A stretch of 64,000 nt of DNA, from the NCBI GenBank assembly GCA_016748015.1, contig JAAOMT010000436.1, positions 1,300,847 through 1,364,846 on the forward strand. The letters are read 5' to 3'. This document shows positions 3,098 to 60,445 of the stretch, piece after piece. Below the pieces are notes generated by a model, which saw only the letters and a program-made list of their open reading frames with translations, was not told the origin of the DNA and did not search any database. The first letter of the stretch is position 1, and the number at the start of each line of letters is the position of its first letter. The position numbers were made by a program, and so were the translations under genes. The stretch is from Geosiphon pyriformis uo1 (lineage: Eukaryota > Fungi > Glomeromycota).

Positions 3098-3980
3098 TGT
3101 TACTCATAAAAATATAGGAAATATATTAGCATAATTATTAGCCAATCAAAAGTAAGCGTAGTAAATGTGGAATTCTAGGATTCTTTTCAGGAATTGCAGA
3201 ATTCCAGGAATTTCAGGATTCCCTGATGAGAAATTGCAGGATTCCAGAATTCCAGGATTTCTTTCAAAGGAATCGCAGAATTCCAAGAATTCCAGGATTC
3301 CTGTTGTGAAGAATCGAGGAATTGAGGAATCCCAATTATGTATATATAGCAGTAGTGTTAGAAACAGAAAAGGGAGAATCAATACCACAGAATTCTTAGC
3401 CAAGAAACCAATCATCAAATAAATAATTATTTAATATCTCAATCTACTCTCCACTATCAACACTTCATGTTGATAGTAATTGATACTTAACCACACTGGA
3501 ACAATAGCTCTTGATCACAGCTATTGACGAGATACTAACGTACCAAATTGCCTTGGCTTATTTTCTTTATTTTTTTTAATTTTATTTTCTTTTCTTTCTT
3601 TGATTTTGTTGTTGTATACTAATTGAGTAAAAAGTTTAAGCACTGAGTTATTGACGTCAAAGATAACCTGGTAAAAGACCCAAAAATAAGGGTAGAATTA
3701 TATATATATTAACAGATAGCTTACCAGAAGGGCACAACTGCCAGAATAAATCCAGCTGCCAAGCTAAGAAAGAAATTGGGCATAATTGCAACTCCAGGAA
3801 AACTACTACCATCACTATTGAATCTCTGTCTATTATACAAAGAACTCCACAACAAAACCTTTAGATCACCCAAAACCTTCAGATACCATACCTTGCACAC
3901 ATCATCCACGAAAGTAGCTTTTGAGCACCAAGTTACAGATTTGTTATTCAATACACCACTCAAAATAATTACCTGTAACA
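3098..3980 (+). repeat. G1 5' LTR
   Basis: TGTTAC...GTAACA; direct repeat of 12362-13237; GGAATTCC/GGATTCC array followed by TATATATA near 3342. Confidence 0.97.
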
Positions 3981-3982
3981 TT

Positions 3983-3999
3983 TAGTGCTCCCTGTGAGG
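3983..3999 (+). promoter_or_regulatory. G1 primer binding site (tRNA-Ile(UAU)-like)
   Basis: TAGTGCTCCCTGTGAGG 2 nt after the LTR (TGG>TAG decay); related PBS in G2, G3 and G4. Confidence 0.75.
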
Positions 4000-4042
4000 T
4001 ATAATCCTATAGAAAACCAGCACCGACAACACCAAATCAAAA

Positions 4043-7000
4043 GTGGCAGAATCAGAAATTATAGGAGCAAACCATTTAGGATTCGCAAAATCTTTATTTC
4101 AATACTATTGTCAATACTTAAGATTAAATCACAATCATATATCCACCGAATCAGCCTTCAATTTCTATGTCAACAAAAAAATTTTCTCTTTATTAGGAAC
4201 ACCAGTGAATACTGAATCAGCAAGAGAAACTTTTTATAAAGAATTAATTTAAAACACCAACCTACTAACAAACCATAATTTTGCATCCATTATCATTAAG
4301 ATCAACAAAGAAATTGAACACCACACTCAACAAAGATATCCAATTACATACACTAGTAAAGGCAAGAGAAAATTACAAACACTAGCAGTAACACCCCAAA
4401 AAATACAGCCACCTGCTTGGAAAAAAAACAGAGTTGAATCCCCAAGCAACCCATTATATCACTATACACCTGGAAGCACCATCAACATATCATCAACTGA
4501 TGCGTTTTCATCAACTGCGACATCAGCATTTGGATGATTCCCATTCCAAAGTAGACAAAGGAAAACAGAATTGTTAGGACCATACGGCGAATACTTTGAG
4601 GGATTTAATTCACGATCATCAACCCCATCAGGACTTTAATTACCACTGCCTCCACCAGATTTTGGAATCTCTGATCCATGAGAAGCAGCAGAATCAGAAA
4701 AGGAAGAAGAAAAATCAGAGGATTAAGAATTCACTTACCTACACCCAATCTCTGAAAACCCAAAAGTTGAAACTCCGAACATTCAAACTCAGCAACAGTT
4801 AGAAAATCCGGAAATTGAAACTCTGAATATTTGAACACCGCCTAATCAAAGAAATCAAAACCCCGAATTAATTAATCAGCAAAACTTACCTCCAGTAATC
4901 GTTATCGATCAACTGCTGATTAATCTCATAGCCGAACCCATACAGCAGCCACTTCAGCTATCACTCCAACAGCCAGGACAACAACAACTGTTTCAACAGC
5001 CACCACAACCACCTAACTTAGACCCAATGGCCTACGCACCAATCACAAAACTTGACAACTTTACGGGCAAAGAGGATGATGCTTAAATATGGCTGAATGA
5101 TGTAGAAAAGGCCATCGCAGCCAACGGATGGAATGATGCTCGAGCAATGCAAGCCATTCCCTACTTTCTCAAGGATACTGCTGATTCATGATACCAGAGC
5201 TTGATTAATAAACCACAAGATTTTAATGCCTTCAAAGCAGAATTCCTAAGATACTTCAGCAACAATAACAGCATCAACTGTCTAGTCAATGCATTCACCA
5301 CCATGAAACAAGGGGAAACTGAAGCAGTTACCACTTATCTGGGACACTTCCATCAAAACCTACATCAAATTCAAGCAATTGACACCAACTATTTCACAGC
5401 ACCACAGATACTCAATCAGTTTATTTGTGGCCTGCACAGCAGCATCTTGCAACATGTACGTCCATTGCATCCAGGCACCCTTCAAGATACAGTCACACAT
5501 GCCAGAGATTTTGAATCCACTGAGTCAGAGGCTAACCATGCCCAAGCCGTTAATCTAGTAATGAACAGATCATCTGAATTGGATTCCAAATTGAAGAAGT
5601 TCAGTGAATCAATCAATAAGAGATTGGAAGGATACTTAGCTGACAATCATGCCATTTATCAGCCTCCACAATGACACAATAATCAAGGAAACTCTAATCG
5701 TACACAAAATCAACCATGTCCATCTCCATCAACCAATCAACAGTGGCAACAAGAAACGCATATCTGCCACTATTATGGTAAACAAGGACATATCCAAATT
5801 GACTGTCGCCAGCGTTTAAATAACCAACAATTGGAAAATCAATATCAAAACCCCAATCGCCGGTTCCAAACTCCGAATCAGTACCCAAATCAAAACTCAC
5901 CCGCTTACCTACCAGTGACGCAGTCATCAGTCTATCAGTCTTCAGTATATCAACCTCCAATTTATTAGCCACAGCCACAAGTAATATATCAACTACAGCC
6001 ACAAATAATTTATCAACTCCAACAGATCCAAACACCACCCCAAAACTTACCACCCAATGGAACCCAAAGACTGAGAATGACTCAACAGAGCTGGAGATTG
6101 GCAATAGTAGTTCATCAACTGATCTCCAGTTCTTTACAGCAACCATCTGGATTGCGCCAGCAGAATTCAAGTACCAGTCAACCCCAGAACCCGAATTCCC
6201 AGAACTATTTAAGTCTCTTAGTTATCCCAGAAGATGCTTCAACCAATAACCTGGCATTTACCCAAAAACAACCACTCACCAGTAATATCTCACCTGCTAC
6301 CATTACTGAAGACAAGTCATAGGCCGCTATCTTCCCATTTGAATTTGAGGAAACAGCTACAATACTATTATTTAGTGGAGCCACTCTTGAAGCCAAACCA
6401 ATCACCGCGATGTACACTGACGCCAAAGTCGAAGGACAATTCATTAAATTGATCCTGGACAGTGGTTCCGCAGGCAGCATAATCACAAGACAACTCATGG
6501 ACCAATTAGGTTGCCAAGTTGATTGAGCTGCCAACGCCAGAATCATCACAGCTGATGGAGCAACCAAAACTCCAATTGGCAAAATTGACAACTTTCCATT
6601 TAAAGTCAATGGCATTGTGACTCTCATTAAAGTTCTAGTGATAGAAGCCACTCAATGCCAAGCTCTTGTTGGTAATGACTGGCTATCTAAAGTCAACACG
6701 ATGTTAGACTGGAACACCCAAAAACTCCAGCTAACATATCAAAACCAACACATACGTGTTCCGGCCACGTGTGGCCACTTTAAAACTCCTCCAAGAGAGA
6801 AACTATTGATCGAACTGGAGGAGAAGAAAGAAAAACCTATCTGGGAAGCCTATCAAGTGTCATGGGCAGACAAAGAGCACAACAAACTACTGTCAATACT
6901 CTTTTGAAACAACAGCAACAAGGAAAAAGGGAAACAAAAGGAAAAACTTACCTGGGAAACTGATGACCTGACATGGACCGACAACGATGAGAGCAAACCA

Positions 7001-10000
7001 ACTTCAAGCTGGAACTGGGAAGAGGACAAAGAAAATAAAGGAAAAGGGAAAGAAGAAGAGACCACCCAAACCACTACTGCTTATAACACCTATACTATAC
7101 CACAACGATCTATCTATTGTTGACCTAAGCTTATATGCATCGATTGTGGTAAGAAATTGTCGTCAATAGGCGCATGCTGTGGGGATGATGAGGAATATTC
7201 AACGGCAACTAGGTTCTATTGCCACCCATGTGTCCTTAAACACTTTGGAAAACCAAAACGAGTAGGGAAATGGGACAATCAGCCATGCTTAGCTTGTAGA
7301 GAGACTCTTTTGGACAAAGGAATGTGGCATGACATTCCTGGACATGGAAGAACGTGCGATGTAGAATGTCAATACATGATTCTGATCAGCGACTGGATTA
7401 AAAAGGGGACACCAATCGAAGCCACTTGGCAAAGAGCAGTGTGACGATTAGACAGTTGTCCACATGACGATGACAAAATTTGGAGAATGGCAACTGCCAA
7501 AATTGAAGGCGCGTCATCAGAAGAAATCCAGACAATTAAAAACAACCCACCAAAACCTATCGAGCTTGACTGGAATGCAGAGCCAGTTATAAATTTTCTA
7601 GAACCAGAAGAGTTCCATGAACACTACCAAAACTTGGCACCCACTAGAGAAGAGCAAGAACAATGGCTAGCACAGTTAAATACAAAACTGTGTTGCCATT
7701 GTTTAATTCTCAGTGACTTTGAATATTGTGCCGATTGTGACCTCATTTACAATCCACCACCACACATAATCTACTCGATCCCTGAAGAAGAAGAACCAAT
7801 CAGCAGCTGTGCATCAAAATTAGAATCGCCAATCAATCACCATCCAGACTCTGACAATGACAACGAAAACACTGGTTCCAGCTCCGTTCAAAATGGCAAT
7901 AACGACAAAAATGATTCAGACTCAGATTCGAAACCTGATTTAAACTATGAACAATACATTGCACTACCAGATCTCTCCAAGGAACAAGAGTTGAAATGAT
8001 ATAGTGACAATAGGGAAGATATTATGCCAGAACGTATACATGATATGGATGCAGAGTTTGATCTGAGATATCCAGGAAAAGATGCCATCAAATTGGAACC
8101 ACATTTATGCACCTGCATTGATCTGAAAATAGCACTAGAGATTCCAGCAACAACAATAGTTCAATTAGCATCTAGGAGTAGTTTAGCGAAAAGGGGGATC
8201 AATATAAGAGGAAAAATAATTGACATGGGATATGTAAGAAATATTATTGCTATGCTACAAAATGACTCAGAAAAGGCCTATATAATAGAGCCCAACAAAA
8301 AAATAGCACAGGCAATATTCCTGCCTCTGATTAGAGTAGCTCAGTTAGTGTCAGTGGGAAAGAGGAAAGAATTAGGAATAACAGTGAGAGGAATACAAGA
8401 ATTTGGATCAACGGGTAGAATAGATGTACCAGTTAATATGGCAAAGGAAGAAATTGTTGGCCAAGGAGAAATTATCTTAACTGGTCAAGCTATTTCCATT
8501 CCACCATATAGCCAGTACATGTTAGCAATAGAAAGGAAGGAAAAGGAGCAAGAACAGATTTTTGAAGTGGAAGCAACTCTTTGTGAATTAGGAGAGATTG
8601 GGTTGATCAATCTCCACATACCAGTCAAAAGCTATAGCAGCATAAAAATTCCCATCTACAACAACACTGGCAATGTCATCAACATACCAGAAGGAACCAC
8701 CATCGGATATTTAATCACAGAAATAGAAAACCAACCACCAAACCCCATTCCAGACTTTTCACAACTTTGTGGATATATAGACATCACATCACAAACAATT
8801 TATAGACAAGACAAATGTTATTTGCTCCAACCAGAACAATTGGAACAAATGAACATGGGAAACTTAGATCCACTTCAATGTATGCAGCTCAAGATGTTAC
8901 TCAACAATTTCAACAACATCTTTGCCAGCAAAAATGAGTTTGGCCGAACTGACATCATCCAGCATCAGATCAAGACTAGAGATGCAATGCCAATCAAACA
9001 AAGAGCATACAGAGTGCCGCCAGCCAGCCATGAGATTATTTGTCAAGAGATAAACAGAATGCTTGACAATGGGCTAATTCAACCATCAATGAGTCCATGG
9101 TCATTACCAGTGGTATTCGTCCATAAGAAAAATGGAAAAATTCGGTTTTGTGTAGACTACAGAAAACTCAATGGTGTAACTCATGGAGACAGTTATCCAA
9201 CCCCACAAATACAGGAATTATTCAATGCTTTTGGTGGGAACAAATGGTTCTCCACATTAGATTTGGACAGTAGTTACTGGCAAGTAGCCATGAATCCAGC
9301 TGACAAAGAGAAGACGGCATTTACTACTAGAGAAGGGAATTTCGAATTTGAAGTAATACCATTCGGCTTAACCAATGCCCCAGCAACTTTCCAATGGCTA
9401 ATGGAAATTGTTTATACTGGCTTATTGTGGAAATCAGTAGTTGTATACTTGGACAACACCAATGTATTCTCAAAAACATTTGATGATCATCTTCATTATC
9501 TTCAATAAGTGTTTGAAAGACTAAGAAGAGCAGAACTAAAATTAAATGTGACAAAGTGCTTCTTTGGCAAGACAGAACTCAAATTCTTGGGACACATAGT
9601 CAGCAAAGACGGCATTAAAACGGATCCAGAGAAAATAGAGATAGTAAAGAACTTTCCAGTGCTGACCAATATAACAGAACTGAAATCATTCTTGGGATTC
9701 GCCAGTTACTATTGTCATTTTATCAAGAACTTTTCCAAGATAGCACAGCCACTCAATCAACTGCAAAACAAAAATGCAAAATATGAATGGACAGAAAGTT
9801 AACAAAAAGCTTTTTGATATTCTGAGAAAAAAGCTCATCCAAGCTCCAGTACTGATCTATCCAGATTACAGCAAATCATTTATCATCATCACCGATGCAT
9901 CCGGCCAAGCATTGGGAGCAGTATTATCTCAGAGAGGACTGGACGGCAGAGAACATCCAGTAGCATATGCCAGCAGAGGTTTAACACCAGCCGAAAAGAA

Positions 10001-10250
10001 CTATGGAACACCGGAACAAGAACACTTAGCAATATACTGGGCCGTCATGAAATGGAAAAAATATTTGAGCCAGAAGTTTGAAGTATACACAGATCACAAG
10101 GGATTAATATCACTCCAAAAACAAGAATTTGGAGATGAAAGACAGTCAAGATGGAAAATGGCACTTGCACCATACAATTATACTATACATTACAAAAAAG
10201 AAAAAAACAATGGAAATGCTAACAGTTTATCGCGAATAAGACAAATCTAA
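4043..10250 (+). pseudogene. G1 gag-pol: extended Gag, capsid, CCHC knuckle, aspartic protease, Cys-rich domain, dUTPase, RT, RNase H
   Basis: ORF pieces 4043-9802 share one frame. Motifs CHYYGKQGHIQIDC, LILDSGSAGSI, RFCVDYRKLN, PFGLTNAPATF, VYLDN, ITDASG, YTDHKGL, NANSLSR; stops and a frameshift near 9800. Confidence 0.93.
8024..8419 (+). CDS. dUTPase domain within G1 pol
   Basis: All five trimeric dUTPase motifs, some substituted: DAEFDL, ASRSSLA, GKIIDMGY, KIAQAI, RGIQEFGSTG. Confidence 0.92.
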
Positions 10251-10313
10251 GAACATTTCAACTCAAAAATATAATAAAACCAGAATAATACCAATGGAAA
10301 AATACAACAAAAG

Positions 10314-11696
10314 ATGAACATACAAAAATATTAACAATTGCAACATTATCTAAACACTCAACAGTTCAAGGAGAATTTATCTCATACAGAACAAAGGAGT
10401 ATCAAACAACAATCAAAATATTTTATCATTTACCAAAATATACTTTATTGGAAAAATAGAAGGAATTCAGATCAACCAACCAGAGTAATTACGGAGCCAG
10501 AAAAAAAGACAATATTGTTTAACATGTACTCAAATCCAACAGCAGGACATTTTCACAAAGAAGCAATCATAGAAAGAACTAAAAAAAGATACTATTGGCC
10601 ATCAATGTACCCAGACATCATTCAATATATTCAAAATTGTGATGCTTGTCAGCAAAGAGAAGAAACAAGACCCAGTGAACTATTAAGACCAATCAAAGTG
10701 GGACAACTATTTGACTGTATTGGAATTGATTTAGTTGGACCATTAACAATCACCAGCAGAGGAAACAGATACATAGCAGTAGCTATGAACTATTTCACTA
10801 AATGGCCAGAGGCGAAAGCAATTCAAAGAGTGGATGCAGAATCTATTGCCAAATTCATTCATCAGGATTTGATTTGTTAACATGGATGTCCAAAAGAATT
10901 ATTATCAAACCAAGAAACTCATTTTGTGAACAGAATATTAACAGAATTGAGCCAAAGATTTGGAATCAAGAGACCATTATCATTATCATACCATCCACAA
11001 ACCAATGGATTAGTAGAAAGATTCAACAGAACATTGTGTGAAACAATAGCCAAGCTCAGCCAAGAAAACCAGAACAATTGAGATTTGTTCATACCATCAG
11101 TACTATTTGCTTATCAGACAACGAAACAAGATACTATACAAGCAACACTATTTGAATTAGTATATGGAAGAATAGCAATGTTACCAGTAGAGAGAGAAAT
11201 TAATACATATCCAGCTGAACCAATAACAGAAGAAAATTTTCAAGAAACATTGCTAAGAAAAACATATAACTTAATGGAAACATTGGAAAACAAATGAAGA
11301 AGAGCAGCTGATAATATCCAAAAGTCACAAGAAACACAGAAAGAAAGACACAATAGTCAACTACCAGACAAACCAGTTGAATTCAAGATCGGAGACAAAG
11401 TATTACTACATCATACCAAAGCAGAAAAACAATGGAGTGGAAAATTTGACCCCAAATGAGACAAACCATTTCACATAGAAGAAATTCTAGGAAATGGAGC
11501 TTACAAATTAAGATTAAATAACAAAATTTTAACCAAAGCAGCACATAGAGATCAACTGAAACCATATCACAACATCACACTACCATCTACCAATAATATT
11601 CCACAATTAGGAGTACAAAGAATACTAGTCCAACCAGATGAGATTCCACAAGATCTGAAACCAATCATTATTATCGACAACAACACGTTAAATTGA
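10314..11696 (+). pseudogene. G1 integrase as a separate ORF (HHCC, DDE, GPY/F; no chromodomain)
   Basis: ATG at 10314; GHFH..CDAC, GIDLVGPL, YHPQTNGLVERFN, FKIGDKV..KPFHI; TGA 11694-11696. Confidence 0.9.
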
Positions 11697-11751
11697 TCCA
11701 TCAAAAGAATATATAAAGACATGGTAAACACAACAGGAAATATCAGAAAAA

Positions 11752-12348
11752 ATAGAAATTACAGACAACATTTACATACTAGCACAACAACTCTTTCAAT
11801 TAATCCAACACCAGGAAATGGAAATTACAATCAATCAATAAACCATTCAATATTAAGATACTAGAAAGACATTTCAACTCAGAACACAGAAGAAAACTGA
11901 AAATACTGTGGACAAAATTATGGCGAAAGTAAAATTAGCAATAAAAAAATCGACAAAAGAGTTACTATATTAAGAGTTGACTAAAGAAACTTGGAATTGG
12001 TGAATACAACAATTTCCACGAAACTATTGTTATTTTTACTTGGGACAACACGTAAATATCCAGAATCTATATATGGATAAAACAAAGCAATTATTCGACA
12101 AAAGAATACTACAACAATTAGAACATTTTGTGGGAAAGAACAACTTATTTACACAAGTCCAAGCCATATACCAAATACACACAGCATTTCAGGATAAATC
12201 AGAAATATTGCTCAACAGAGCAATGGATATGGTTACCAGTAATCAATTGAGAAAAATCACCAATGCTCAATTTAAAGAAAACAAAATCCAGAAAATACTT
12301 CAAAAGGGGGAATTACATGAGTTAAATTTCGATGGAGCTCAATATTAA
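11752..12348 (+). pseudogene. G1 accessory ORF3, unknown function
   Basis: Start decayed to ATA; same frame as ORF 12040-12348; homologous to ORF3 of G2-G4; ends FDGAQY* at the PPT. Confidence 0.75.
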
Positions 12349-12361
12349 AAGGAGGGAATAA
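12347..12361 (+). promoter_or_regulatory. G1 polypurine tract
   Basis: AAAAGGAGGGAATAA directly before the 3' LTR. Confidence 0.85.
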
Positions 12362-13237
12362 TGTTACCATAGAAATATAGGAAATATATTAGCATAATTA
12401 TTAGCCAATCAAAAGTAAGTGTAGTAAATATGGAATTCCAGGATTCCTCTCAGGAATTGCAGGATTCCAGGAATTTCAGGATTCCCCGACAAGAAATTGC
12501 AGGATTCCAGAATTCCAGGATTCCTCTTAAAAGAATCGCAGGATTCCGTGAAGAATCGAAGAATTGAGGAATCCCAATTATGTATATATAGCAGTAGTGT
12601 TAGAAACAGAAAAGGGAGAATCAATACCACAGAATCCTTAGCCAAGAAACCAATCAACAAATAAATAATTATTCAATATCTCAATCTACTCTCCACTATC
12701 AACACTTCATGTTGATAGTAATTGATACTTAACCACGCTGGAACAATAGCTCTTGATCATGGCTATTGACGAGATACTAACGTACCAAATTGTCTTGGCT
12801 TATTTTCTTTATTTTCTTTAATTTTATTTTCTTTCTTTTTATTTTCTTTTCTTTCTTTGATTTTGTTGTTGTATACTAATTGAGTAAAAAGTTTAAGCAC
12901 TGAGTTATTGATGTCAAGGATAACCTGGTAAAAGACCCAAAAATAAGGGTAGAATTATATATATATTAACAAATAACTTACCAGAAGAGCATGACTGCCA
13001 AAATAAATCCGGCTACCAAGCTGAGAAAAAAATTGGGCATAATTGCAACTCCAGGAAAACTACTACTATTACCATTGAATCTCTGTCTATTATACAAAGA
13101 ACTCCACAACAAAATCTTCAGATCACCCAAAACCTTCAGATACCATATCTTGTGCACATCATTCACGAAAGTAGCTTTTAAGTACCAAGTTATGGGTTTG
13201 TTATTCAATACACCACCTGAAATAATCACCTGTAACA
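12362..13237 (+). repeat. G1 3' LTR
   Basis: Direct repeat of 3098-3980, differing mostly by transitions plus small indels. Confidence 0.97.
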
Positions 13238-17927: not shown

Positions 17928-18906
17928 TGTTACCAGATGAAATTAGAGATATTATTTAGCATGAAATTATCTTTATAATTCCTATCATTAATTAACATAT
18001 ATTATCGTTTTAAATTATCACTTAGTATATTAGCAAAATGTCCAAAATTATCATTTAATTAATAACCCAATTTGTATATAACACAAATATAACCTAATTG
18101 CAATGATCAATCATGCAATACCCCGAACTATGTAACATTCAAAAAGTTCGCCGAAATTTGTAGAAATTTGCCGAAATAATTAATAGTTCACTGAAATATC
18201 CAATAGTTCACAGAAATAACCTGTAGTTCGCCGAAATGTATTTTCAGTTCAGCAAAATTGTAGAAAAGAGCAAAGTTCAAGTTCATAGAATAGTGTTACA
18301 ACAAGTTGTATAAAAGAAAAGCTTCTTTCTTCGAGGAAATGTATCTTACTTTAGATTTATCACTTAGAACTATTCCTACATACACAAAAAGAAATAAATA
18401 TCAAATAATTCAAAAAACCAAATTCTTTAATTATTGTACTTGGAAAATTCCCAAAATCCAACTAACATTTTGAAATTGATTAGCTACCAATTTCAATAAA
18501 CTGTTAGTGACTCCAGGCCTGGATAGAAAACGTTTTCCTTGACAGAATTCTATTTCTTTTATATTTCTTTTATTTTTTTTTTCTTTTCTTATTACAATTA
18601 TTAGGGTAGCCTACAGACAAGATTTCTGTAGAAGAGTTGACTTTCACAGCAAAGTAACTACACATTTTAGTGAGCTTCCAGATGAGCAATTCCTGGGAAA
18701 AAGTTGATGTTTACTACAACGTAACTACATAAAATAACTGGCAAGGAATTGGCCATTTCACTTATAAGCCCAGCAGTTCAAATTATAGGAGATAATTTGA
18801 AGATAAATTCAGTTACTGGAGGTTCAACCACATCCAGAAAATGTGAATTCACAGCAAACAAGCATCGACAACATTTAAGAAAAGAGACCAAAAATCTCCG
18901 GTAACA
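17928..18906 (+). repeat. G2 5' LTR
   Basis: TGTTAC...GTAACA; 20-bp-period array 18141-18262; TATAAAA near 18310. Confidence 0.97.
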
Positions 18907-18951
18907 TTTGGTGCTCTCCCATAGAAATAACACAGCAACAACAAATTCAAA

Positions 18952-21900
18952 GTGGCAACCACCTCAGACATCACAACCTTAGAGTACTATCAATCGATTT
19001 ACATACACTGCAAACAATGATTTGAAATACACGACAGAATTATAGCTTTCAAGAAAACACTTTTTCAATACATCAAAAATCGAATCAACAACTATCTCTT
19101 TGGAAACTATAACATTACAACAGTTAAAAGAGATCTTCTTGAGAACATATTACACTATTCCAACACTGAATCAGAAAACATTAGTGCTGAAGCTTGTGCT
19201 ACTTATTTTAAGGAACTTGATTATAATATCATTCAATTCTGTGAAAAAAAATATCCTGCAAACGCACAATTTGTCTTTGAACTCAAATCTGAACCTGAAA
19301 CCAGTAGCAACAAAAGACAAAGAGATAACCGACCTGTTTACACAACATCCAATACTCCCAAAATATCATTCAAACATTTACAAACACCTGAACAAGGAAC
19401 CAGTTCAAAACTTCTACTTACTATCACACCTTTTCCAGCTTCACTTGCACAAGCACAAACATTTAATTCACTCTTGAATCAATTTGCAAGACCAGAAGAT
19501 TTTACATCACTCAGAAGTCCCACCAGACAACAAGAACCCCTTCAAACTAGTTCCAATCTCCTTGACTTTCTAGCTGAAAACCAAAGTGAACACTCTGAGA
19601 CAGCAGCAAATGAAGAAAACGAACCTGAAATATCTGAAGAAAAATCAATAGACAGTGAAAACAAAGAAGACAAAATGACAACATACATTGCAAAAATTCC
19701 TGAATTTAATAGAGAAGACATTGAGACCAGTCCCCAAGAATGGCTCGACCAAGTTACTAAAGCTGGAGATGCAAATGAATGGAATGCTGCCAGAATGTTA
19801 AGAACAATTCTCTACTTTCTCAAAGGAACAGCAGGAGAATGGTTTGAAAACCTTGCCGCCCCATTCAATGATTGGAACGCTTTCAAAACAGCCTTCCTTG
19901 AACAGTTCACTGACAATAACACCTTTATCACTCTTCGCAATCATTTTCAAAATATCAAACAAAAACCCTCTGAATCCATTATGACTTATATTGGGAAATT
20001 CAACAAACTTCTCAGACAAATTCGCCAACTCGAGACAAATGATTATTATTTCGATGCTCAAATCTTGGATTAATTTATCGCTGGTCTAAAAGATAAACTA
20101 ATTAAAAAGGTTCGCCCACATGCGCCAGAAGATTTAAACTCTATCATACAGCATGCGAAAAGATACGAAATGGCCATGGAAGAGGCCAACTGCACAAAAC
20201 TTGTAAATTTGGCAATTGGAAAAACCAGTTCAGCAGCTGAGGAAAAAATTGACCAACTCACAAAAAAGATTGAAAACTATTTCACCAATTAACAACAACA
20301 GCAACCCCAAAGATATCAACCATCCCAAAGACGAAATCAAAATAACGTTGCACCACTTTTCAATAACCAGCCTCAGAATTGCCATTACTGTGGAATCTCT
20401 GGCCACTGAAAAAGAGATTGCAGAAAGCTACAACAAGACCAACAAAATAAGAGTAATCAATGTTACCCTCCACCACAGCAATCTTATTATCAACTACCAT
20501 TACCAGCTTACTATCTACCAAGACCCCAATACCAAAATAACTATTATCAGCCAGCCCCACAGCCAATCCCACAGCAATACCAACAACCACCCACACAACA
20601 TTATCAAGTACCTGCTCGAAGACTGATTACACAAAATCAATTCACACCACAAAACCAATACCAAGTAAACAACAATAGAATTAGTTCAAACAACCAATTG
20701 GTTCTCCGAAATACCACTCAACCAAAACCCAACCACTACCATACTCAACCCAGTTATTTAACAATGCTGGAAGAACAGGATTTTCACCATACTGCACTTA
20801 CGAAAGGTAGAGCTGTAGCACAACAACAAAACTCTTCCTATACTCCCATCACAATTCCATCAGCCAGAATTGCTGAAAACGCTAACCTTTCAGATATATT
20901 CCCTTTTGAGTTCAAAGCAAATGAGTCACCATTTCTGCTTAGCAATGCAGCCGCCAATGAACAAAAAGCAATTACAGCCATGTACACTGAAGCCGAAGTC
21001 GAAGGAAAGACAATTCGCTTGATCCTAGACAGTGGATCCGCCAGAAGCATTATCACCTACCAGTTAATGCAACAGTTGAAAAGAAATGTCGACTGACCAG
21101 CTCAAACAGTAATCATTACTGCTGATGGCATGAAAAAGACACCAGTAGAAAAAATTGACAATTTTCCATTCACTCTTGATGGAATTACCATTCCAGTCAA
21201 AGTTCTTATAATAGATGCACCCCAATACCAAGCTCTTATCAGAAATAATTGGCTTCAAAAAACCAATGCTAATCTGAATTGGGAAACACAAGAGTTAACA
21301 ATTTCCTACCAAGGACAACATGCCCGAGTACCTGCCACTTGTGGTACATTTAACAAATGCTCTAAAAAAGCCCCAGCTTTTAAATTCGAACTGGAAGAAG
21401 AAAAACCCTTCATTGAAACATTCATGGCTTTTGGATCAACGTCCAACTGGGCTGATGAAACAAAACAAGAACATTTTACCCCATACTCTGAACCCGAAAC
21501 CTCTGGATGGAATATCCCTTACTCAAAACCTGAACCAAAGAAACAACGCCCCTATATTCCCCTTAAATGTAAGGACTACCACAAGAAACTATCGTCAATG
21601 GGAGCCTGCATTTCATCTAAAGAAGAATATGAGAATCATACTTGTTATTACTGCAAGGCTTGCCACAGAGAATGATGGGGCCATCTAATAAAAAGGAGCG
21701 GAAAATAGGACAACACCCCTTGTTTGACTTGTGGAGATAGGCTACTAGAAGAATGCAATTGGATTGATGTAGCCATGAGAGGAGGAGTCTGCGATCAGAC
21801 CTGCCAATATGCTTTATCAATTTCAGAAAAAGTAAAAAGAGGAACACCCTTTAATGCAGCATACAACAGTGCTCTCAACAAACTTTATCACTACCCCATG

Positions 21901-24560: not shown

Positions 24561-24609
24561 AAAACAAAAACCAACATGCAACTTAACCAACCAAAAGAGC
24601 CAACAAACA

Positions 24610-25995: not shown

Positions 25996-26102
25996 TTTAA
26001 TTTTACTAGTTACTCCTTTATAATTTAGAAATAATCAAAACAAAAATAATATAAAAACCCATACACCAAAAATAATTTTCTTTTATTTTCAAATCTCTTA
26101 TA

Positions 26103-26779: not shown

Positions 26780-26790
26780 GGAGGAGGTTA

Positions 26791-31936: not shown

Positions 31937-31950
31937 TTATTTTCTCCTTT

Positions 31951-40000: not shown

Positions 40001-40202
40001 ATTCTGTATGGAAGTTTTCTCTTGTTGATTCAATGTTAACTGTTTCTCTTAAGCAATCTGTGATTTTATCATTGATGTAGAAGTTGAAGGCTGATTCTGC
40101 TAAGAAATAATTATTGCTCAATCCTAATTGTTAACTGTACTGTTGAAATAAGGATTTGGCAAATCTTAAATGGTTTGTCCCTATGATTTCTGATTCTGCC
40201 AC
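34056..40202 (-). pseudogene. G3 gag-pol (dUTPase about 35886-36273)
   Basis: AESEIIGTNHL, CHYCGKQGH, LILDS, DAGFD/GGIIDVRY/RGIQRFGSTG, YLDD, TTDASD, NANSLSRMRQI*. Confidence 0.92.
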
Positions 40203-40264
40203 TTTTGGATGATTGTTGATGATACTGGTTTTTTGTAGGATTATACTTCACAGAAAGCACCAAA

Positions 40265-41074
40265 TATTACAAGTGATTATTTGGGGTCTTAAGTCAAATA
40301 ACAAATCCGTAATTTGGTGTTCAAAAGCTATTGGCAATAATGGTATTAGTAGTCTAAAGATTTTATTAATCTAAAAGTTTTGTTGATGAGTTCTTTGTAT
40401 AACAGACAGAGATTTAATAGTTGTTTTCAGTAGTCTTCCAGAATCGCAATTTCATCAAATTTCTTTCTTAGCATGATGGCTGGTAATCCTCTTAATAAGC
40501 TATCCTCAAATCTATGAATGTTATACCCTTGTTTCACAGGTCTTTTACCAGTCTCTATGATGTCTGTATCTCAGCACTTAATTCTTAATCAATTTAGTAA
40601 AACCAAAGAAATGACAACAAAGAAAAAAAATACAAGAAAATAAAAAAAGATAAAGAAATAAACAAAAACAATTGCAAGTTAGTATCTCATCAATAGCCAT
40701 AATCAAGAGCTATTGTTCCAGTGTGGTTAAGTATTAATTATTATCAACATGAAGCATTGATAGTAGAGAATAGATTGAGATATTGAATAATTATTTATTG
40801 GTGATATGGAAAGTTGCTTAGATCAAATCTAAACTAAGAGGTCTTTAACTAAAGAATTCTGCTTTTTTTATTTCTAATGCTACCACTATATATACATAAT
40901 TGATGTTTTACAAGATCACTCATATTCCTGAGCAATGTGCTATAATTTTTTGAGCAATGTGCCCTAATTTTCTAATATTACTTCACATTGCTGAGCAATG
41001 TGTTCATGTGCTAAATACTATTCACTTATTGGTCTATTATTTTTCCTATATCTGTTTTCTTTTTATGAGTAACA
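40265..41074 (-). repeat. G3 5' LTR
   Basis: Adjacent to the PBS; R/U5 homologous to the G1 LTR, U3 array different. Confidence 0.95.
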
Positions 41075-51898: not shown

Positions 51899-52552
51899 TA
51901 TTATAGGTTGGAGTAACAAGTTAACAGATAGCAAAAAAGAACAGAATTGTAGGGTGATGAAAGAAATCAAAGGAAGTTCAACTTTAAAGAGCGAATTGAA
52001 TAAGTATAGATTTAATATGTAAGATTAGTCTCATAAAATATCTTAGTTGCTATACTTTTTAAAAATAACCAGGGAATCTAAAAGTAGAGAGATAGTCCAT
52101 ACTATTAACAAATGATTACATATTAGTATAATTCTATGCCTCATGTTAGCATTTTTAGAATTCAATATCAGGTATTAGATGTATTTTTCAGTCATATTTT
52201 ATTCAATAATTTTCCAATATTGCAATTACATGTTTCAGGAAAAGAGTAAGAAATAACCAACAAGTAATTTTTTATTTCAAGATGTTTAGATACTTAAAGA
52301 TAGAGAAAGAGAATTTAGCAATAAGAGAATAATTAAGATGAAAGTTGTTATTTTATTTCTTTTTTTTCTTTGATTTTTACATACTTTTCTACAGCTAAAA
52401 GATTCATTGTTTATATAGCTATTAAAAATAGTCAATGATCAGATCAATGATCAGATCAATGATCACTTTCTAAAAATAGAGTGGCTAATTATATGACATT
52501 AATGACTAATACATGTAATATTTAATAAGAAGTATAGATTTAAACCATAATA
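51899..52552 (-). repeat. G4 3' LTR
   Basis: Direct repeat of 59751-60445 with fewer 12-bp units. Confidence 0.92.
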
Positions 52553-53149
52553 TTATCCTCTCCAAAGAGATTAAGCTTTGGCAAAATCAAGTTATTCATG
52601 ATGTAATCTATTTGAAGAGTTTTATTTAACTCAAAGCTAACTAGTTTATTGAAGTTTTTTATGAGTTTTATATTCAAGAGACTAAATATTTGTATTAAAG
52701 TTTTGGCTCTTTTAGCAATAGTTAAAACTCCTGAGACATTTAACTATATAATACCCAAAATTTCTTTTTGTATTTTTGAAGTTGTTTTCTTCATAAGTTT
52801 CATATCTTCTATGATTTTTTCAAGATGACCATAGAGTTTTAATTGCCTTCCATATGACAAGTTTTTGTCTATGGGTAAGATTTCTTGGAGTGTTTTTTTA
52901 ATTATATTAAAAGGTAGGAGTATAGCTATTGTTATACTTTCCAACAGATATTTATCCATTTTGCTACCAATTTTTTCTCTTCTAATAGTGGTTTTTTTTG
53001 GTCTAATAACAGTATGTATTCTACTGTTATCAGTTATGGTGGTTTGTTTTTCAATGGTCAGAGTAGCATTTGGATAGTTTTTTAATCCAATACTTATGGA
53101 AAGTATAGAAGGTGTTTTGAATGTTTTGATCCAGAAAATAATTATTTAT
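52553..53149 (-). pseudogene. G4 accessory ORF3
   Basis: DQNIQNTF..IGLKNYPNATLTI (compare G2 PQNIQQLF..ALKTIPKLSIT), LKLYGHLE, TIAKRAKTLIQIF, DFAKA; frameshifted. Confidence 0.6.
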
Positions 53150-53186
53150 GTCAATTGAAGATACCTCTGTTTTGGGAATGATGCAT

Positions 53187-54496
53187 TTATTTATACTTAA
53201 TTTTGGTGATTATTTGGGTTGGTATTATCACAACAGACAACCAATTAGGTTATTTATAATATTTTTTGAGTCATGTACTATAAACAAAATAATTATTAAA
53301 GATTGTTCTAAATTAATCTTGAAGAATATAAAAACTATTGTTCAAAACTTTGTTGACTATAAAGGGTCTTTTCTACTGGCTAGAGAATTTATTACCATAG
53401 ACATTGTTTTTGTCTAAACAGTATTTTAATACAAAGTTACCAACACTTAAAAAAAGTGTTTTATAGGTTTTTTTTTTCTTAAGCTTTTCTTGGAACTGTT
53501 TTATTTTTTCAAAAGCAATTATTTGTGTTTCTACCAAGGAATCAAGAATAGTACTAAGTTTTCTTTGCAAAATGTCTTTGTAATTTTCTATTGTAATCTT
53601 TTCAAAGAGTATTGTCTCAATATCAGTTTTTATTGGTAGTGTTGTCATGTGTTCATAAAGCAGATAAAAAGGTTTATAACTTGTTATGTTATAATTCACA
53701 GTTTTATAAGCAAACAAAGCTGAAGGCAGTACTTTGTCTTATAAGTTTGTTTCTTCACTGGTTTTGGCCAAAGTTTTACATAGTGTTCTATTGAAATGTT
53801 CCACTAAGCCATTTGTTTAAAGGTAGTAAGGGGAAAAAAGTTTATGACATATTCCCATTTTTCTACAAAGTTTTTCAACCAGTGTACTGAGAAAAGCTCT
53901 TTCTCTATCAGATAAAAGTTTTTTGGAGCAGTTATGATGGCAGATAATATCTTTATAAATGAAATTGGCTATTGAGACTGCTGTTTGGTCTGAAGTGGCT
54001 CTTGCTTCTATCTACTTTGTAAGATAGTCAGTAGCTGTGATAATGTATCTGTTGCCATTAGGAGTTATTGTTAAAGGTTCAACAACATCTATAAATGGTT
54101 GACTGACAAAGATTGGATGGATATCTTCTTTACAATTGGGTTTGTCTTTTTTTGGCAGATGTTATAGGTTTTGATGTATTTAGAAATGTTTTTTCTCAAG
54201 ATAGGCCAATAATAGCAAACTAAGATTTTTTGAATTGTTTTTGTTTTTTCAAAGTGTTCAGTTAATGGGTCAGTGTGCATTTTGTATATTACAATTTCTT
54301 TTTTTTCAAATCTGATGACTCTTTGGGGGTGGTTAAGATCTTTTTTGTTTCTTTTATATAATTGATTTTGGCAGATCAAATAAAAATTTAATTGTTTGTG
54401 CAAATGTTCTCTTTGCTGTTAAGTGTAATCTGGTGGGTATTGTTCTTTACCCAAAAATTCTATTAAGACAGAGTAGTTGTTCAAGTTTATTATCAT
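53187..54496 (-). pseudogene. G4 integrase as a separate ORF
   Basis: MIINLNNYSVLIEFL..., HTDPLTEHF, DYLTK, NGLVEHFN. Confidence 0.87.
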
Positions 54497-54558
54497 GTTT
54501 GTTTGTGAAGGAGTTACTAATAATTAGATTAGTTTGGTTTGAGAAGCTTGTACTGTCA

Positions 54559-57500
54559 CTAGATAGTAAACCTAAAGAAAACATTGACATTTTAATGATT
54601 TGCTCCTTTGTGGTATTGAATATTATAGTTAAATTCATCCAAGTGGAGTATTTAGTGAGTTATTCATTTGTGTTCTAACTTTTTTTTATTGCACAGCCAA
54701 ACTAAGACTTGATGATTTGTTACCACTAAGAATTTTGCACCAAGAAGATATTGATCTCAGTAACTAGTAGCCCAAACTACTGCTAAATATTCTTGTTCAG
54801 TAACTGAATAGTTCTTTTCTGCTGGTGTGAGAGATCTACTGGCATATGTTATAGCATGCTCTCTGCTATTTTCATCTTTCTGTGAAAAGACAGCACCAAG
54901 TCCATAGCCAGATGTATCAGTATAGAGAATAAAAAATTGATTCAAATCAGGTTGCTTGAAAATTGGTTCAATAACAAGTTTTTCCTTCAGAATTTCAAAA
55001 GCTTTTTGTTAATGAGTGCTTCAGTAATAATTGACATTTTTCTTGAATAGCTGATTAAGAAAAAAGGTAATTTTGGAGAAATCCTTAATAAATTTGTGAT
55101 AGTAAGAAGCCAAACCAAGGAAAAAGTGTAGTTTAGGAATATTTATTGGTTGTCTAGTGTTTTGAACTTTTTCAACTTTAGTTGGGTCAAGGAAGATTTT
55201 ATCTTTTGTAATAAGATGACCAAGGAACTGGGTGGATTGATGTCCAAAGAAAAATTTGATTGGATTGATCTTAAGACCAGTATTTCTGAGCAGGTCAAAA
55301 ACCTTCTGCAAATATTCAAAATGTTCATTCCAAGTTTTTGAGTAGACTATTATGTCATCTAAATAGATCAGAACAAAGTTTTCTTTTATTGATTCAAATA
55401 CTTTGTTTATTAAACATTGAAAGATGGGAGGAGCATTGGTAAAACCAAAAGACATGACTGTAAATTCATAGATGCCATACTTGGTAATAAAAGCAGTTTT
55501 TTTTTTGCTTTCTAAATTCATCTCTACTTGCCAAAATCCAGCAGTTAAGTCAATAGTTGAGAAGAAAGCAGCACCATTGAATTTGTCTAGTATTACATCA
55601 ATTTTAGGGAGTGAGTACATATCTCTTATAGTAATGGCATTTAATTAGTGGTAATCAATACAAAAACATAGAGTTCCACCTTTTTTGAATATCACTATAA
55701 CTGGAAAAGCCTATTCACTTTTGGTTTCTTGTATGAATCTAAGATCTTTTATCTGGTTTATTTCTTTCTTGATAAACTTATCATTGCATTGATTGAATTG
55801 ATAAGGCTTCAAATAGATAGGATAAGTTTCTTTTGTAATAATAGTGTGTTGTATCATATGGATTTGTCCAGAGGTATTATCTTCTTTTGAGATAATTGGG
55901 CTATTTTTAGCCAATAGATTTTCAATGTCCACTTTTTTTTCTTTAGAGAAAAGTTTTCTTTGTTCTACAACTAGTGATTAGATTTCAGGTGGTTTATTTT
56001 CAAAAGACTTCTGTACTTCTTTTAGTTCTTTTTTAAGTATTAAACTAATTGGCTCCTAATCTTTATAATAGATTAGGCAGAACTTGTATTCATTACTAGA
56101 AGAATACAAAGGTTTATCACACCAGCATCTGGTATAAAGACCATATTACCAATAATTATATTTTGCTTTTTTGCCAGGTTTTCTATCAAAGGTTCTTCTG
56201 AAGATATTATAATAAGACCAGCAGATCAGCTTGCTATTTACCATGATTCTTTTTTTATCTGCTTTAACATTATCTAATGACTTGCCATTGCTGGTAAAAA
56301 TAGTATAAGCAAGTTTAGCAGTTTCTTCTTGTTCTTTTTGTTTATTTTCTTTGTCACTTTCTTCATTATTTGACTCATCTGATTGCTCTTTTTTTTGGCT
56401 TTGTTTGAGTACTGGAGGAGTTGTCCAATGGCAACACTTAATCACAATGGGTTTCTTACTACATCTGATGATCAGTTCACAAAGTTCATAATCAAGCAAA
56501 GCTTTTGCTTTCTTGAGCCATTCATTACCAACTATTATAGTGTATTTTTTTGCTTCAGATATTTCCATATTAGTTTTAATGCTGATGCTATTGATTCAGA
56601 CAAGAACAACTTTGACTATGTTCAGACCTTTCTTCTTGTCACCATGTATATTGGTCATTAGTTTTGTGAATAGTTCATCAATTTTTCTGCCAATTGCTTC
56701 TAAAAAGTGTTGGCAATGATGCTAACAGATGATTTACTATTCAGAATCAGATCAATAAAGTAACTAACCACTTGGGCTTTATAAATGAGAAAGATAACAT
56801 TGCTATTATTAGCAAGTTCAGCTTGGTGTGAGCATTTGTTGGTCTTTGGTGTCTTTTTTTTGGAAATCAAAGATTTGTGAAGATTTTTTCTGAATTGGAA
56901 ATGAGTTATTAACTGGCCAAAGATAATATGAGCAAATGTTTTCATGAGATCTTTGACAACAGAATAAAAACCAAATTTTTGTACTATTTTTGGAGATTCT
57001 AACTTTGGAGAATTCTTAAAAACTTTGGCCTTTGTTGGCTTATTGTTATTAGCAATAAAAGTTGAAGCTTTGTTGGAATCTAGAACAAAATCAACCTTGG
57101 CTTTCTTCTTCTTTCTTGTCAAGTCAGAGGGATTGATAGCCAGTTCATTCATATCATGATTATTGTCAATTAGATTAAAAGCATAAAAGAGATTTTCTTT
57201 TGGTTGGCTTGCACTTTCACCCTTTGGAGGTACATCTACCAGTTTAAAAGCTGATAAACAGTAGCTTCAACTAGGAAATTCTTTCCAAAAAAATTGATGT
57301 TAGCATGATTGGGTCTTTAATTGGGGATATTGTTGTTGATAATTTTGTTGTTTTGATTATTATTGTTTCTAGAAGCTAAAGGTGACAAAGGAGAATTGTT
57401 GGAATTTCTTAAGAAATGTTTAGTTAATTTACAGTAGTAACACACAGGTGGGCCACAATTTTGTAATTTTTAATAAAAGAATTGCTGGAGTTAATTAAAA

Positions 57501-59698
57501 TGGGATTCAAATCTGGCTCTTTGAAGTTGTTGATTCTCTCTGACTGCTTGGGCTAAGGGTTCTAGTAATTGAACAAGATTAGCTGTAAGTTTATTTATTA
57601 ACTATTCATTTGGGTTTTGAGTTTGGACAGCAAAAGAGATATCAGCCATTTGGGAAGCAGGAGCAGGAGCAAAAACTGAAAGTGTGGATCTTAGATGCAT
57701 TTTTTAATTGTCTTCTATTCTCTGGACAAGTTCAATGGCCATATCTATTGTAAGATTGTTTTTTAGTGCCAAAAGGGGCCAAAGAGCATATGACAAATTT
57801 GTTCTTAAATTTTTTGTAAAAAAATGAATCTTTTGCTTTTTTGTTTAGTTTTTTTCAGAATCTACTTGCTTGATTAATTTTCTAATTGCTTTGGCATACT
57901 CAATTACAACTTTACCAAAACCTTGGGTTTTTCTTTCTAATTTTATACACCATTTGAATATCAAGATAGGAGTTCTAAATTTCATTTCAAACTGGATAGT
58001 AAAAGAGGTGTTATCTTTTTCAGCATTTGTTGGTGTCCATCTAATAATTTTTTGCTGAGCATTGACATTGGTTTTTTGTAAAAACAAAGTAGCAAAAGAG
58101 TCTTGGAAGTAGCCACCAATGATTTGGAATTTATATTTATTATTATATTGGTTGGCTGTGGCAGCTCTTTCAAAGTCATTCAACTATTCAATTGAATCTT
58201 GTGTATTATCTCTGAATAAAGGTAGTGAAGTGTTATTTCTTTACCCTAAAGCAGTTTGTATGCTCTAGAGAGTAATCAGAATGTTTTGTTGTATGATGTT
58301 ACAGGTAATTATTTGGGGTGTTGATGAAATAACAAACTCATAACTTGGTGCTCAAAGCAATTAGTGATGATAATAATCTGAAAGTATTTTCAAATGAGTT
58401 CTTTGTATAATGGACAGAGATTTAATAGTTGTTTATCCGTAACTTCCCAGACTCACAAGTCTGTCAATTTTTTTTTCGGCTTGGTGGCTGGCAATCCTCT
58501 GGTAAGTAATCTGTATTTTCTGTATGTGTCCTACCCACTTGCAGAGATCTTTTACCAGGCAATCCTTGACATCAATAATCAGCACTTTTAATCAATTGGT
58601 TAGTACACAATAACAAAATCAAAGAAACATAAAGAAAATAAAAAAATATAAAGAAATAAGCCAAGGCAATTTACAAGTTAGTATCCCATCAATAGCTGTG
58701 ATCAAGAACTATTGTTTTAGTGTGGTTAAGTATCAATTACTATCAACATGAAGTGTTGATAGTGAAGAGTGAATTTGATATAGTGAATAATGATTTATTT
58801 GAGGATTGTGGTAACTATGCTAAGAATTCTTGGTGTTGATTCTGTTTTTTTTTTGTAATTTTAATAATTATAATTTTGCAAGTCTAATTAATTCTATGAG
58901 TCTAATTGACTCTGCAAATCAATTGACTCTAAGTTCCATTGACTAATTTTCTAACTTTTGATACTACTGCTATATATACGTATTTGAGATTCTTCAATTC
59001 CTCAATTTTTCATGTCAAGAATCCTGAAATTTTGCAATTCCTTTGAGAGGAATTCTGGAATTCTGGAATTCTGCGATTCCTCATGTAAAAATCCTGCAAT
59101 TCCTGGAATCCTGCAATTCCTCTGAGAGGAATTCTGGAATTCCACATTTACTATGTCTACCTATGATTGGCTAATTTATATGCTAATATACTTCTTATAT
59201 TTTATAAGTAATAATGAGATCATTAGCCATTGGTTTAGGAGTAGCTGTTTTTGTGAAATGTTCTGATTTACTTGAGAAGAGATTAAAAACAGAAGCAGTT
59301 TGATAGCTTTCTTCTTCTGTTTTAAAAGGAGTTTCAGATAGCTGATGAGCAGCAATTCAGATGTGAATTTGGTGATTCAGATATTCAGAATCAAAAGGCT
59401 GTTGTTCAAAGGTTGTGGAATATAAAAGTTGATTGATGCTGTTGTTTTTTTCTTCAAAGTTGTTTTCAAAATAAGCTTGGTTAAAGTAATAGGTTGTATA
59501 AGCTGTGTAGGTTTCAGCTAAATGCTCATTTAAAAACTAGTTCCAAAAGTCTTGGAATTGTTTACTGAATTGTTTTTTAATGGAGAAGCAAATCAAGCAG
59601 AAGAGCAAAGAATTGAGTTCAATAAAATTTAAATCATTTTTGTTGTATACTTCAAAGTATTCTTCTGATTATTATGGCAGATATAAATAATTACCCAT
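54559..59698 (-). pseudogene. G4 gag-pol (split by solo LTR)
   Basis: MGNYL start, MANDLI|QQN across the insertion, CYYCKLTKH, LILNSKSSVS, IYLDDII, YTDTSG; ends NVNVFFRFTI*. Confidence 0.88.
58297..59213 (-). mobile_element. Solo LTR of the G1 family inserted in G4 gag
   Basis: Reverse complement is colinear with the G1 LTR; TSD ATGA (58293-58296, 59214-59217); gag frame restored on removal. Confidence 0.93.
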
Positions 59699-59750
59699 AC
59701 AATAAGAAACAAAGTAAATTTTGACAATCTTACAGGGAGCATCACTTTTA

Positions 59751-60445
59751 TATTATGGGTTGGAATAACAAGCTAATAAATAACAAAAGAGAACAGGATT
59801 GTAAGGTGATGAAAGAAATCAAAAGAAATTCAACTTTAAAGAATGAATTGAATAAATATGGATTCAATGTGTGAGATCAGTCTTATAAAATATTTCAGTC
59901 ACTATACTTTTTAAGGATAATCAGAGAATCTGAAGGTAAAAGGATAGTTCATACTGTCAACAAATGATCACATACTGGTATAATTCTATGCCTCATATTG
60001 GCACTCTTAAAATTCAATATCAGATATTAGATGTATTTTTCAGTCATGTTTTATTCAATAATCTTTAAATGCTGCAATTACACATTTTAGGAAAAGAGTA
60101 AAAAATAACCAACAAGTAATCTTTTATCCCAAAATATTCAGATACTTGAAGATAAAGAAAGGAAATTTAGTGATAAAAGAATGATTAAGATAAAAGTTGT
60201 TATTTTTTTTTTCTTTGATTCTTACATACTTTTCTATAGCTAAAAGATTCATTGCTTATATAGCTATCAAAAATGGTCAATAATCAGATCAATAATTAGG
60301 TCAATAATTAGGTCAATGATTAGATTAATGGTCAGGTCATTAATCAGGTCAATGATCACTTTCTAAAAATAGAGTGACTAATTATATAACATTAATGATT
60401 AATACATGTGATATTTAATAAGAAGTATAGATTTCAAACATAATA
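59751..60445 (-). repeat. G4 5' LTR
   Basis: Adjacent to the PBS; about 7 units of GGTCAATGATCA at 60276-60358. Confidence 0.92.

Follow-up and report, generated by a model that had tools for sequence, protein, structure and literature searches.

The window analysed here, by which we mean the whole stretch of 64,000 nucleotides at positions 1,300,847 to 1,364,846 of contig JAAOMT010000436.1 (forward strand), comes from the glomeromycotan fungus Geosiphon pyriformis, in whose genome long terminal repeat (LTR) elements make up 41.2% according to a passage of PMC11952901. Self-comparison and translation place four full-length LTR elements in it, G1 to G4, in each of which the RNase H frame is closed by a stop codon and followed by an integrase open reading frame (ORF) with an ATG of its own, and then by a third frame. 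An earlier sequence-only reading had described the four, with 4-bp target-site duplications (TSDs), primer-binding sites (PBSs) and polypurine tracts (PPTs), as a Gypsy lineage with a retrovirus-like three-cistron genome, and the self-comparison bears out the elements and these signals as follows (PR, protease; RT, reverse transcriptase; positions are those of the window).

3098-13237, + strand: element G1, LTR pair 94% identical, TSD ATGC
3098..3980, + strand: G1 5' LTR
3983..3999, + strand: G1 PBS
3998..10250, + strand: G1 Gag (long N-extension)-PR-Cys-rich domain-dUTPase-RT-RNase H, decayed, start codon not fixed, stop 10248-10250
10314..11696, + strand: G1 integrase ORF, own ATG at 10314, 63 nt after the stop, same frame as RNase H
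11710..11716, + strand: G1 TATA-like box, 45 nt before ORF3
11752..12348, + strand: G1 ORF3, decayed, homologous codon not ATG in this copy
12347..13237, + strand: G1 PPT and 3' LTR (LTR 12362-13237)
17928-27769, + strand: element G2, LTR pair 95% identical, TSD TTGC
17928..18906, + strand: G2 5' LTR
18909..24560, + strand: G2 PBS and Gag-PR-Cys-rich domain-dUTPase-RT-RNase H, stop 24558-24560
24610..25995, + strand: G2 integrase ORF, ATG at 24610, 49 nt after the stop, +1 frame relative to RNase H
26050..26056, + strand: G2 TATA-like box, 53 nt before ORF3
26103..26822, + strand: G2 ORF3, 239 aa, one internal stop, last 10 codons inside the 3' LTR
26791..27769, + strand: G2 3' LTR
31109-41074, - strand: element G3, LTR pair 90% identical, TSD CCAT
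40266..41074, - strand: G3 5' LTR
34056..40265, - strand: G3 PBS and Gag-PR-Cys-rich domain-dUTPase-RT-RNase H, stop 34058-34056
32646..34022, - strand: G3 integrase ORF, own ATG at 34022, 33 nt after the stop, same frame as RNase H
31951..32586, - strand: G3 ORF3 with ATG, TATA-like box 41 nt upstream
31109..31936, - strand: G3 3' LTR
51899-60444, - strand: element G4, LTR pair 87% identical, TSD CTAC
59751..60444, - strand: G4 5' LTR
54559..59750, - strand: G4 PBS and heavily decayed gag-pol without dUTPase, stop 54561-54559, split by a solo G1-type LTR
58297..59213, - strand: solo G1-type LTR nested in G4, TSD TCAT
53187..54496, - strand: G4 integrase ORF, ATG at 54496, 62 nt after the stop, +2 frame relative to RNase H
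52552..53186, - strand: G4 candidate third ORF, no detectable ORF3 likeness
51899..52551, - strand: G4 3' LTR

The PBS of all four elements is TGGTGCTC-like, and the differences within the LTR pairs are nearly all transitions. G1 and G3 form one group with 75% DNA identity across 8.5 kb, while the G1/G3, G2 and G4 LTRs cannot be aligned with one another (local scores 26-46 vs. 415), which agrees with the at least three families proposed from the sequence alone. Pfam searches of G1 and G2 recover Gag, aspartic protease, dUTPase, RT and RNase H together with an integrase of the H2C2-rve-SH3 type. Between protease and dUTPase, G1 to G3 carry a Cys-rich domain of about 220 aa (7127-7756 and 21535-22196 on the + strand, 36538-37163 on the - strand), which has no Pfam match, has a substitution pattern of the coding type between G1 and G3, and was not found in the 80 metagenome relatives described below. 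The dUTPase is also absent from all 80 of these and is limited here to G1-G3. The claim of a CxxC domain followed by dUTPase thus holds for three elements only, as neither a dUTPase nor a long Cys-rich domain was detected in G4. By their LTRs, PBS, PPT, TSD, the PR-RT-RNase H-integrase order and the RVT_1 and RT_RNaseH domains, the four elements are Ty3/Gypsy (Metaviridae).

In all four elements the RNase H frame ends 3-4 codons past its last motif, and the integrase ATG follows. Since all four are dead copies with about 1 stop per 75-110 codons, the window alone is weak evidence for a split, and the matter is settled by intact relatives. One could suppose that the stops reflect decay of an ancestor with a single Pol, as the window copies are full of stops derived by transitions and the G1 and G3 integrases are still in frame with RNase H. 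In the contigs of run X1 over 9000-12500, stops private to G1 are majority differences at some places; the junction stop is not among the 40 of 960 differences listed, too few for its absence to carry weight.

The relatives give a different picture. A length-limited protein search with the G2 integrase gave 458 matches, of which most of the 120 listed are 400-430 aa long with integrase domains only, several being named from Rhizophagus; 30 of 30 stand-alone integrases from the top of the list, Rhizophagus included, begin with Met in one alignment column. As such a search cannot reveal fused forms, metagenome DNA was fetched, and the best 80 of 573 stretches were retained. RNase H and integrase are both visible in 48 of these 80 loci, with a stop between them in 48/48 and fusion in 0/48, a count that describes the nearest relatives and not the frequency of the layout, since the loci were retrieved with split-type integrases. 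Many have long open frames on either side of the stop, and an ATG lies close to the expected integrase start in 47/48. The integrase frame is offset from that of RNase H by 0, +1 and +2 in 12, 19 and 17 loci, so a single read-through or frameshift rule is excluded. Among the 69 loci with an ATG at most 12 nt from the expected start, position -3 is a purine in 62 (51 A, 11 G) and position +4 is G in 63. The stop between RNase H and integrase is, judging from these relatives, a property of the lineage and not decay. With 48 of 48 split, in all three frames, decay is refuted for the lineage, and we give it next to no credence. The sequence-only reading had named one uninterrupted pol and no conserved ORF3 as an outcome that would speak against it; the relatives have instead a split pol and, as described below, a conserved ORF3.

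Two other features of the pol region were seen in the relatives. A single in-frame TGA lies between protease and RT in 8 of the 22 that carry both (L011:2498, L012:2882, L015:870, L058:3290, L062:902, L073:3109, L079:7930 and L080:780), in 7 of the 8 within the context TGA-CTA, known as a read-through signal. In some, RNase H is extended by 200-340 acidic, Cys/His-bearing residues, or a 170-aa ORF is inserted before integrase (L024:2515-3324, L039:3497-4438 and L079:9483-9992, without a Pfam match).

Fused forms do exist, and a search of longer proteins finds them mainly at 30-40% identity. Six microbial or fungal matches reach at least 44%, and five of these are Rhizophagus or Cetraspora gene models. 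Four models with RNase H (P0241-P0243 and P0247) connect RT-RNase H to integrase, which might suggest that an intron removes the stop, so that splicing yields a Pol-integrase polyprotein or a leader-integrase mRNA; a YAG within 40 nt of the ATG in 43/62 loci (a raw count with no control) would be compatible with this. However, where RNase H and integrase meet in these four models, residues conserved in one or the other domain are lost or replaced, as is to be expected of predicted introns, and splicing would not maintain a Met in one alignment column with A at -3. Overlapping stop-start junctions leave no room for an intron, and in the RNA motif described below the AG is changed to GG with a compensating partner in 2/18. 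Splicing seems very improbable to us.

Clean fusion is seen in the sixth of these matches, P0244, known as a protein only, where a single 1023-aa frame holds RT, RNase H, integrase and an ORF3 domain, and likewise in P0249 (39% identity). A quick, unrooted IQ-TREE tree of concatenated RT-RNase H and integrase was built from the 65 of 130 rows that have both, without named reference clades and leaving out five gene models, four near-copies and most of the distant fused rows. It places the 26 split loci and the four window elements in one group with P0244 inside (SH-like approximate likelihood ratio test 89) and P0249 as the sister of this group, while a branch with support 99 sets off 29 fused rows. 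G1-G3 form a clade (support 99), and G4 lies apart from them yet inside the split group. Separate RT and integrase trees agree loosely (support 81 and 92), with more fused rows inside, several of them long-branched. Two layout changes suffice on the concatenated tree, and the simplest, still tentative reading would be one origin of the split and one re-fusion. This group, the separately initiated integrase and the conserved ORF3 support the idea of a distinct lineage with a three-cistron layout.

How the integrase might be translated is suggested by the spacer between the RNase H stop and the integrase ATG, which measures at most 10 nt in 10 of 47 loci, 11-100 nt in 24, 101-500 nt in 10 and more than 500 nt in 3; at two junctions (L047 and L051) stop and start overlap as TAATG. 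The 24 short spacers contain 3 AUGs against 15.1 expected (minimum 8 in 200 dinucleotide shuffles), with TTG and CTG not depleted and GTG in excess, and in the final 100 nt of 12 long spacers there are 10 against 15.6 (reached in 6 of 200 shuffles). In 28 of the 80 loci, a 35-nt RNA motif lies 0-35 nt 5' of the integrase ATG and nowhere else (e.g., L028:16-60). It shows two-sided changes in 7 of 12 pairs, an invariant U-G pair and a covariation score reached by 0 of 500 shuffles, its structure having been derived from the same alignment that was used for the covariation test. The motif has no match in Rfam or among the viral_contigs (0 matches; the latter also hold just 3 weak integrase matches), and the window elements are without it (best E 0.46). 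Candidate roles are ribosome entry, a packaging signal, a nuclease block or a ribozyme. Another subgroup has a second set of recurring short motifs 5' of the integrase ATG, in the spacers of L001, L002, L004, L005, L007, L009, L010, L013, L014 and L017.

The same spacers could also be read as the 5' untranslated region of a subgenomic integrase mRNA made from a TATA-less internal promoter, with each cistron monocistronic. An AUG-free last 80-100 nt and a good start context would suit a short leader, scanning ribosomes would have difficulty crossing 150-1000 nt of spacer with AUGs and, in L079, an inserted ORF, and the short recurring motifs of the one subgroup would fit as well. On the other hand, TATAWAW is not enriched before integrase (5/62 vs. 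3.5 expected in the zone -75..-22, and 6/61 vs. 10.2 within 100 nt), 10 of 47 junctions overlap or abut, which is the pattern of coupled translation, and the motif in 28 loci covaries as an RNA structure with its invariant U-G pair. We therefore consider a subgenomic integrase mRNA rather unlikely, while giving it more weight than the other alternatives.

Upstream of ORF3 the situation differs: 17 of 25 loci have TATAWAW within 100 nt 5' of the ATG, where 4.3 would be expected. In the zone -75..-22, which was picked after the data had been seen, it occurs in 16/25 loci, where 2.5 are expected and none of 300 dinucleotide shuffles exceeds 7, and in 7/13 against 1.5 where the spacer is at least 60 nt long. 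Taken one by one, the four TATA boxes of the window do not exceed chance (shuffle p 0.17-0.53) and are supported by the relatives only, so the TATA signal that had been noted before ORF3 stands at the level of the lineage and not of the individual copies. An internal promoter is thereby indicated for ORF3 only, and not for integrase.

ORF3 itself is a conserved protein family. The 120 best of 198 relatives of the G2 ORF3 are all G. pyriformis proteins at 60-92% identity, and intact 239-aa copies are numerous in Geosiphon. An ATG-started ORF of at least 90 aa follows integrase in 31 of the 48 loci with at least 450 nt downstream; the family alignment comprises 25 of the 31, leaving out one near-copy and five unlike proteins. 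A profile built from 24 metagenome proteins, with Geosiphon sequences excluded, matches the window G2 ORF3 (E 9e-6) and picks up 107 of 120 ORF3 proteins from Geosiphon but 2 of 240 integrase/Pol proteins, and a profile search of 1.84 billion representatives gives 35 matches, including G1-type proteins and two environmental ones. A single Geosiphon protein links the ORF3s of G1, G3 and G2 (E 4e-27, 1e-22 and 1e-12), and changes between G1 and G3 fall 84/52/97 by codon position, fewest at position 2. The G4 third frame has no detectable likeness to the family (E > 7), so that the ORF3 proposed for all four elements is confirmed for three. An ORF starting inside the LTR has no codon-position bias between G1 and G3 (11/15/14 and 27/24/27) and is not claimed.

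The 147-aa core of ORF3 is predicted to form eight helices with a predicted local distance difference test score (pLDDT) of 95, whereas a model from Geosiphon proteins alone is poor (pLDDT 42). Across 26 proteins of 140-240 aa, the maximum 19-residue hydropathy is 0.5-1.3, and no membrane or Env-like hydrophobic segment is present. As modelled, ORF3 is a conserved family of soluble helical proteins. It matches no Pfam family (best E 0.013 for single members, DUF1016_N at E 0.11 in 2/29), no PDB sequence and nothing in the Atlas, and the fold search of PDB and BFVD gave no match (best Z 5.2, root mean square deviation 4.6, 86 aligned), which does not prove a new fold. P0244 has the ORF3 domain joined to the C-terminus of its integrase, and ORF3 adjoins the integrase stop in several loci. 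Because of these two observations, a soluble nucleic-acid-binding cofactor serving integrase seems the most likely function, held tentatively; a translational or transcriptional activator is possible with slightly less weight, and a silencing suppressor is unlikely. In two relatives the third slot holds another protein, a NUDIX hydrolase (E 1e-10) in one and a helix-turn-helix protein in another (L031:1945-2886 and L017:6546-6941).

The RT-RNase H and integrase reach 35-57% in alignments with fused polyproteins of the Gypsy type, and as integrase lies outside Pol here, and not at its C-terminus as in canonical Ty3/Gypsy elements, we file the lineage as a variant of the superfamily. Chromovirus membership is ruled out by an integrase C-terminus without a chromodomain (none in G1 or G2 at E 0.1, none among the 120 listed stand-alone relatives), and membership of the Retroviridae or errantiviruses by a third ORF that is not a membrane-anchored Env. 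"Retrovirus-like" is therefore an analogy only, with RNase H and integrase of the Ty3/Gypsy type. Ginger and GIN DNA transposons have a Gypsy-like integrase without RT and terminal inverted repeats, and are ruled out by the LTRs and upstream RT-RNase H in the window and the RNase H upstream in 48/80 loci.

The sequence-only reading had taken foamy viruses, with their internal promoter for accessory genes, as the precedent, which fits ORF3 and not integrase. For the layout, the caulimovirus genome is a closer precedent than foamy viruses; cauliflower mosaic virus (CaMV) is not known to have an integrase or LTRs. CaMV is likewise reverse-transcribing, with a polycistronic 35S RNA, ORFs lined up in tandem with short gaps between them and, at the end, an ORF served by an internal TATA promoter; as described in passages of PMC5902531, its 19S promoter lies in the 106-bp spacer before TAV (P6), and TAV activates reinitiation. 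Foamy viruses share an enzyme translated apart from Gag, which is packaged RNA-dependently through an RNA signal (parts of PMC7828637), but differ in that Pol is made from a spliced mRNA and includes integrase, and in that Env is present. SART1 and the caliciviruses use stop-restart translation, with termination upstream ribosome-binding sites (TURBS) acting over a range of about 30 nt (passages of PMC10275272), and share the stop-start overlap seen in L047 and L051; they couple ORF1 to ORF2 and not RNase H to integrase, and most spacers here exceed the TURBS range. Fungal non-chromovirus Ty3/Gypsy types have the same TG..CA LTRs, PBS, PPT, gag, PR-RT-RNase H-integrase order and H2C2/rve/SH3 integrase, with integrase described as part of the pol polyprotein (a passage of PMC3248453). 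Here, unlike in those types, integrase is a separate ATG-started ORF, a third ORF is conserved, and no chromodomain match is found.

The CaMV layout raises the further possibility that ORF3 is a TAV-like activator, made first and enabling restart on integrase after a Gag-Pol of 2,000 codons. A TATA signal ahead of ORF3 only would fit, as would spacers beyond the TURBS range, which need help. ORF3 has, however, no detected likeness to TAV, which is not among the fold-search rows, and no known protein resembles it in fold or family in a way that would support this role, the searches giving no match either way. Moreover, the third ORF is missing in 17/48 loci and replaced by the NUDIX or helix-turn-helix protein in two, with integrase still split, and in P0244 ORF3 is fused to integrase. 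We regard a TAV-like role as improbable.

Taken together, we favour with modest confidence a lineage with three separate frames, in which ribosomes restarting downstream of the RNase H stop would make integrase, and a TATA-driven mRNA would encode ORF3. A long genomic RNA would be translated to a Gag-Pol terminating at RNase H, ribosomes would restart at the integrase ATG where the spacer is short, and the subgroup with long spacers or the motif would use internal entry at an RNA structure. ORF3 would come from its own short mRNA, and packaging of integrase, which would not be part of Gag-Pol, would depend on contacts with RNA or protein. What is observed is that a stop follows RNase H, that the integrase start codon is conserved and in good context, that the two frames stand in no fixed relation and that the ORF3 protein is conserved; stop-restart translation, internal entry and the ORF3 transcript are what these sequence features point to.

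Several points weigh against this account. Besides the way in which the 80 loci were retrieved and the late choice of the TATA zone, 8 of 15 TATA boxes at -70..-30 fall within the integrase coding sequence and are perhaps forced by codons, and 17 of the 48 loci with room show no ORF of at least 90 aa after integrase. The link between ORF3 and integrase depends on the one fused protein. CAT is mildly depleted in the short spacers as well (16 vs. 24; 5 of 200), the AUG depletion equally fits the leader of a TATA-less subgenomic mRNA, and viral TURBS restart drops beyond about 30 nt (a passage of PMC10275272) as compared with 33-63 nt in the window. One additional upstream ATG within the spacer of G1 and of G2 argues against simple scanning, and 13/47 spacers exceed 100 nt, most containing AUGs, so no single scanning mechanism covers the lineage.

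Other repeats lie around the four elements. A G2-type LTR occupies the window start (1-896, + strand), G3 is inserted into a decayed long interspersed nuclear element with RT and RNase H (27770-31108 and 41075-43999, + strand), and a repeated element of about 1.9 kb has two copies (45479-47375, and 50446-51895 with 60440-60897, the latter interrupted by G4).

As for novelty, a search of the full-text literature found no description of this layout, though subscription papers, supplements, Repbase, GyDB and REXdb lay outside its scope and may hold one, and the passages of papers on mycorrhizal transposable elements do not mention a split integrase. The suggestion of a possibly undescribed clade thus stands for the layout and not for the dUTPase between PR and RT, which is already reported for fungal and rotifer LTR elements (passages of PMC6431247). 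That position is common to G1-G3 and the dUTPase-bearing elements of fungi, rotifers and planarians (Burro), for which those passages mention no split integrase.

LTR retrotransposons and retroviruses bring integrase into particles as part of Pol (passages of PMC3248453 and PMC7828637), and a diverse, successful lineage doing without a Pol-borne integrase would have another route to make and package it. At its broadest, one may tentatively picture a widespread fungal Gypsy clade with a freed integrase and virus-like expression, in which restart or RNA-guided initiation, including the undescribed 35-nt fold, would be joined to a self-promoted ORF3 with a helical fold not yet on record that escorts integrase or acts as a TAV-like switch. 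Gene models of G. pyriformis and Rhizophagus mis-join or mislabel these frames, which matters for annotation, and intact members of the lineage are natural cases in which reinitiation behind a very long fungal ORF could be tested. If ORF3 did switch on reinitiation, it would be a TAV-like activator outside the Caulimoviridae, where the review PMC5902531, in the passages concerned, knows of none.

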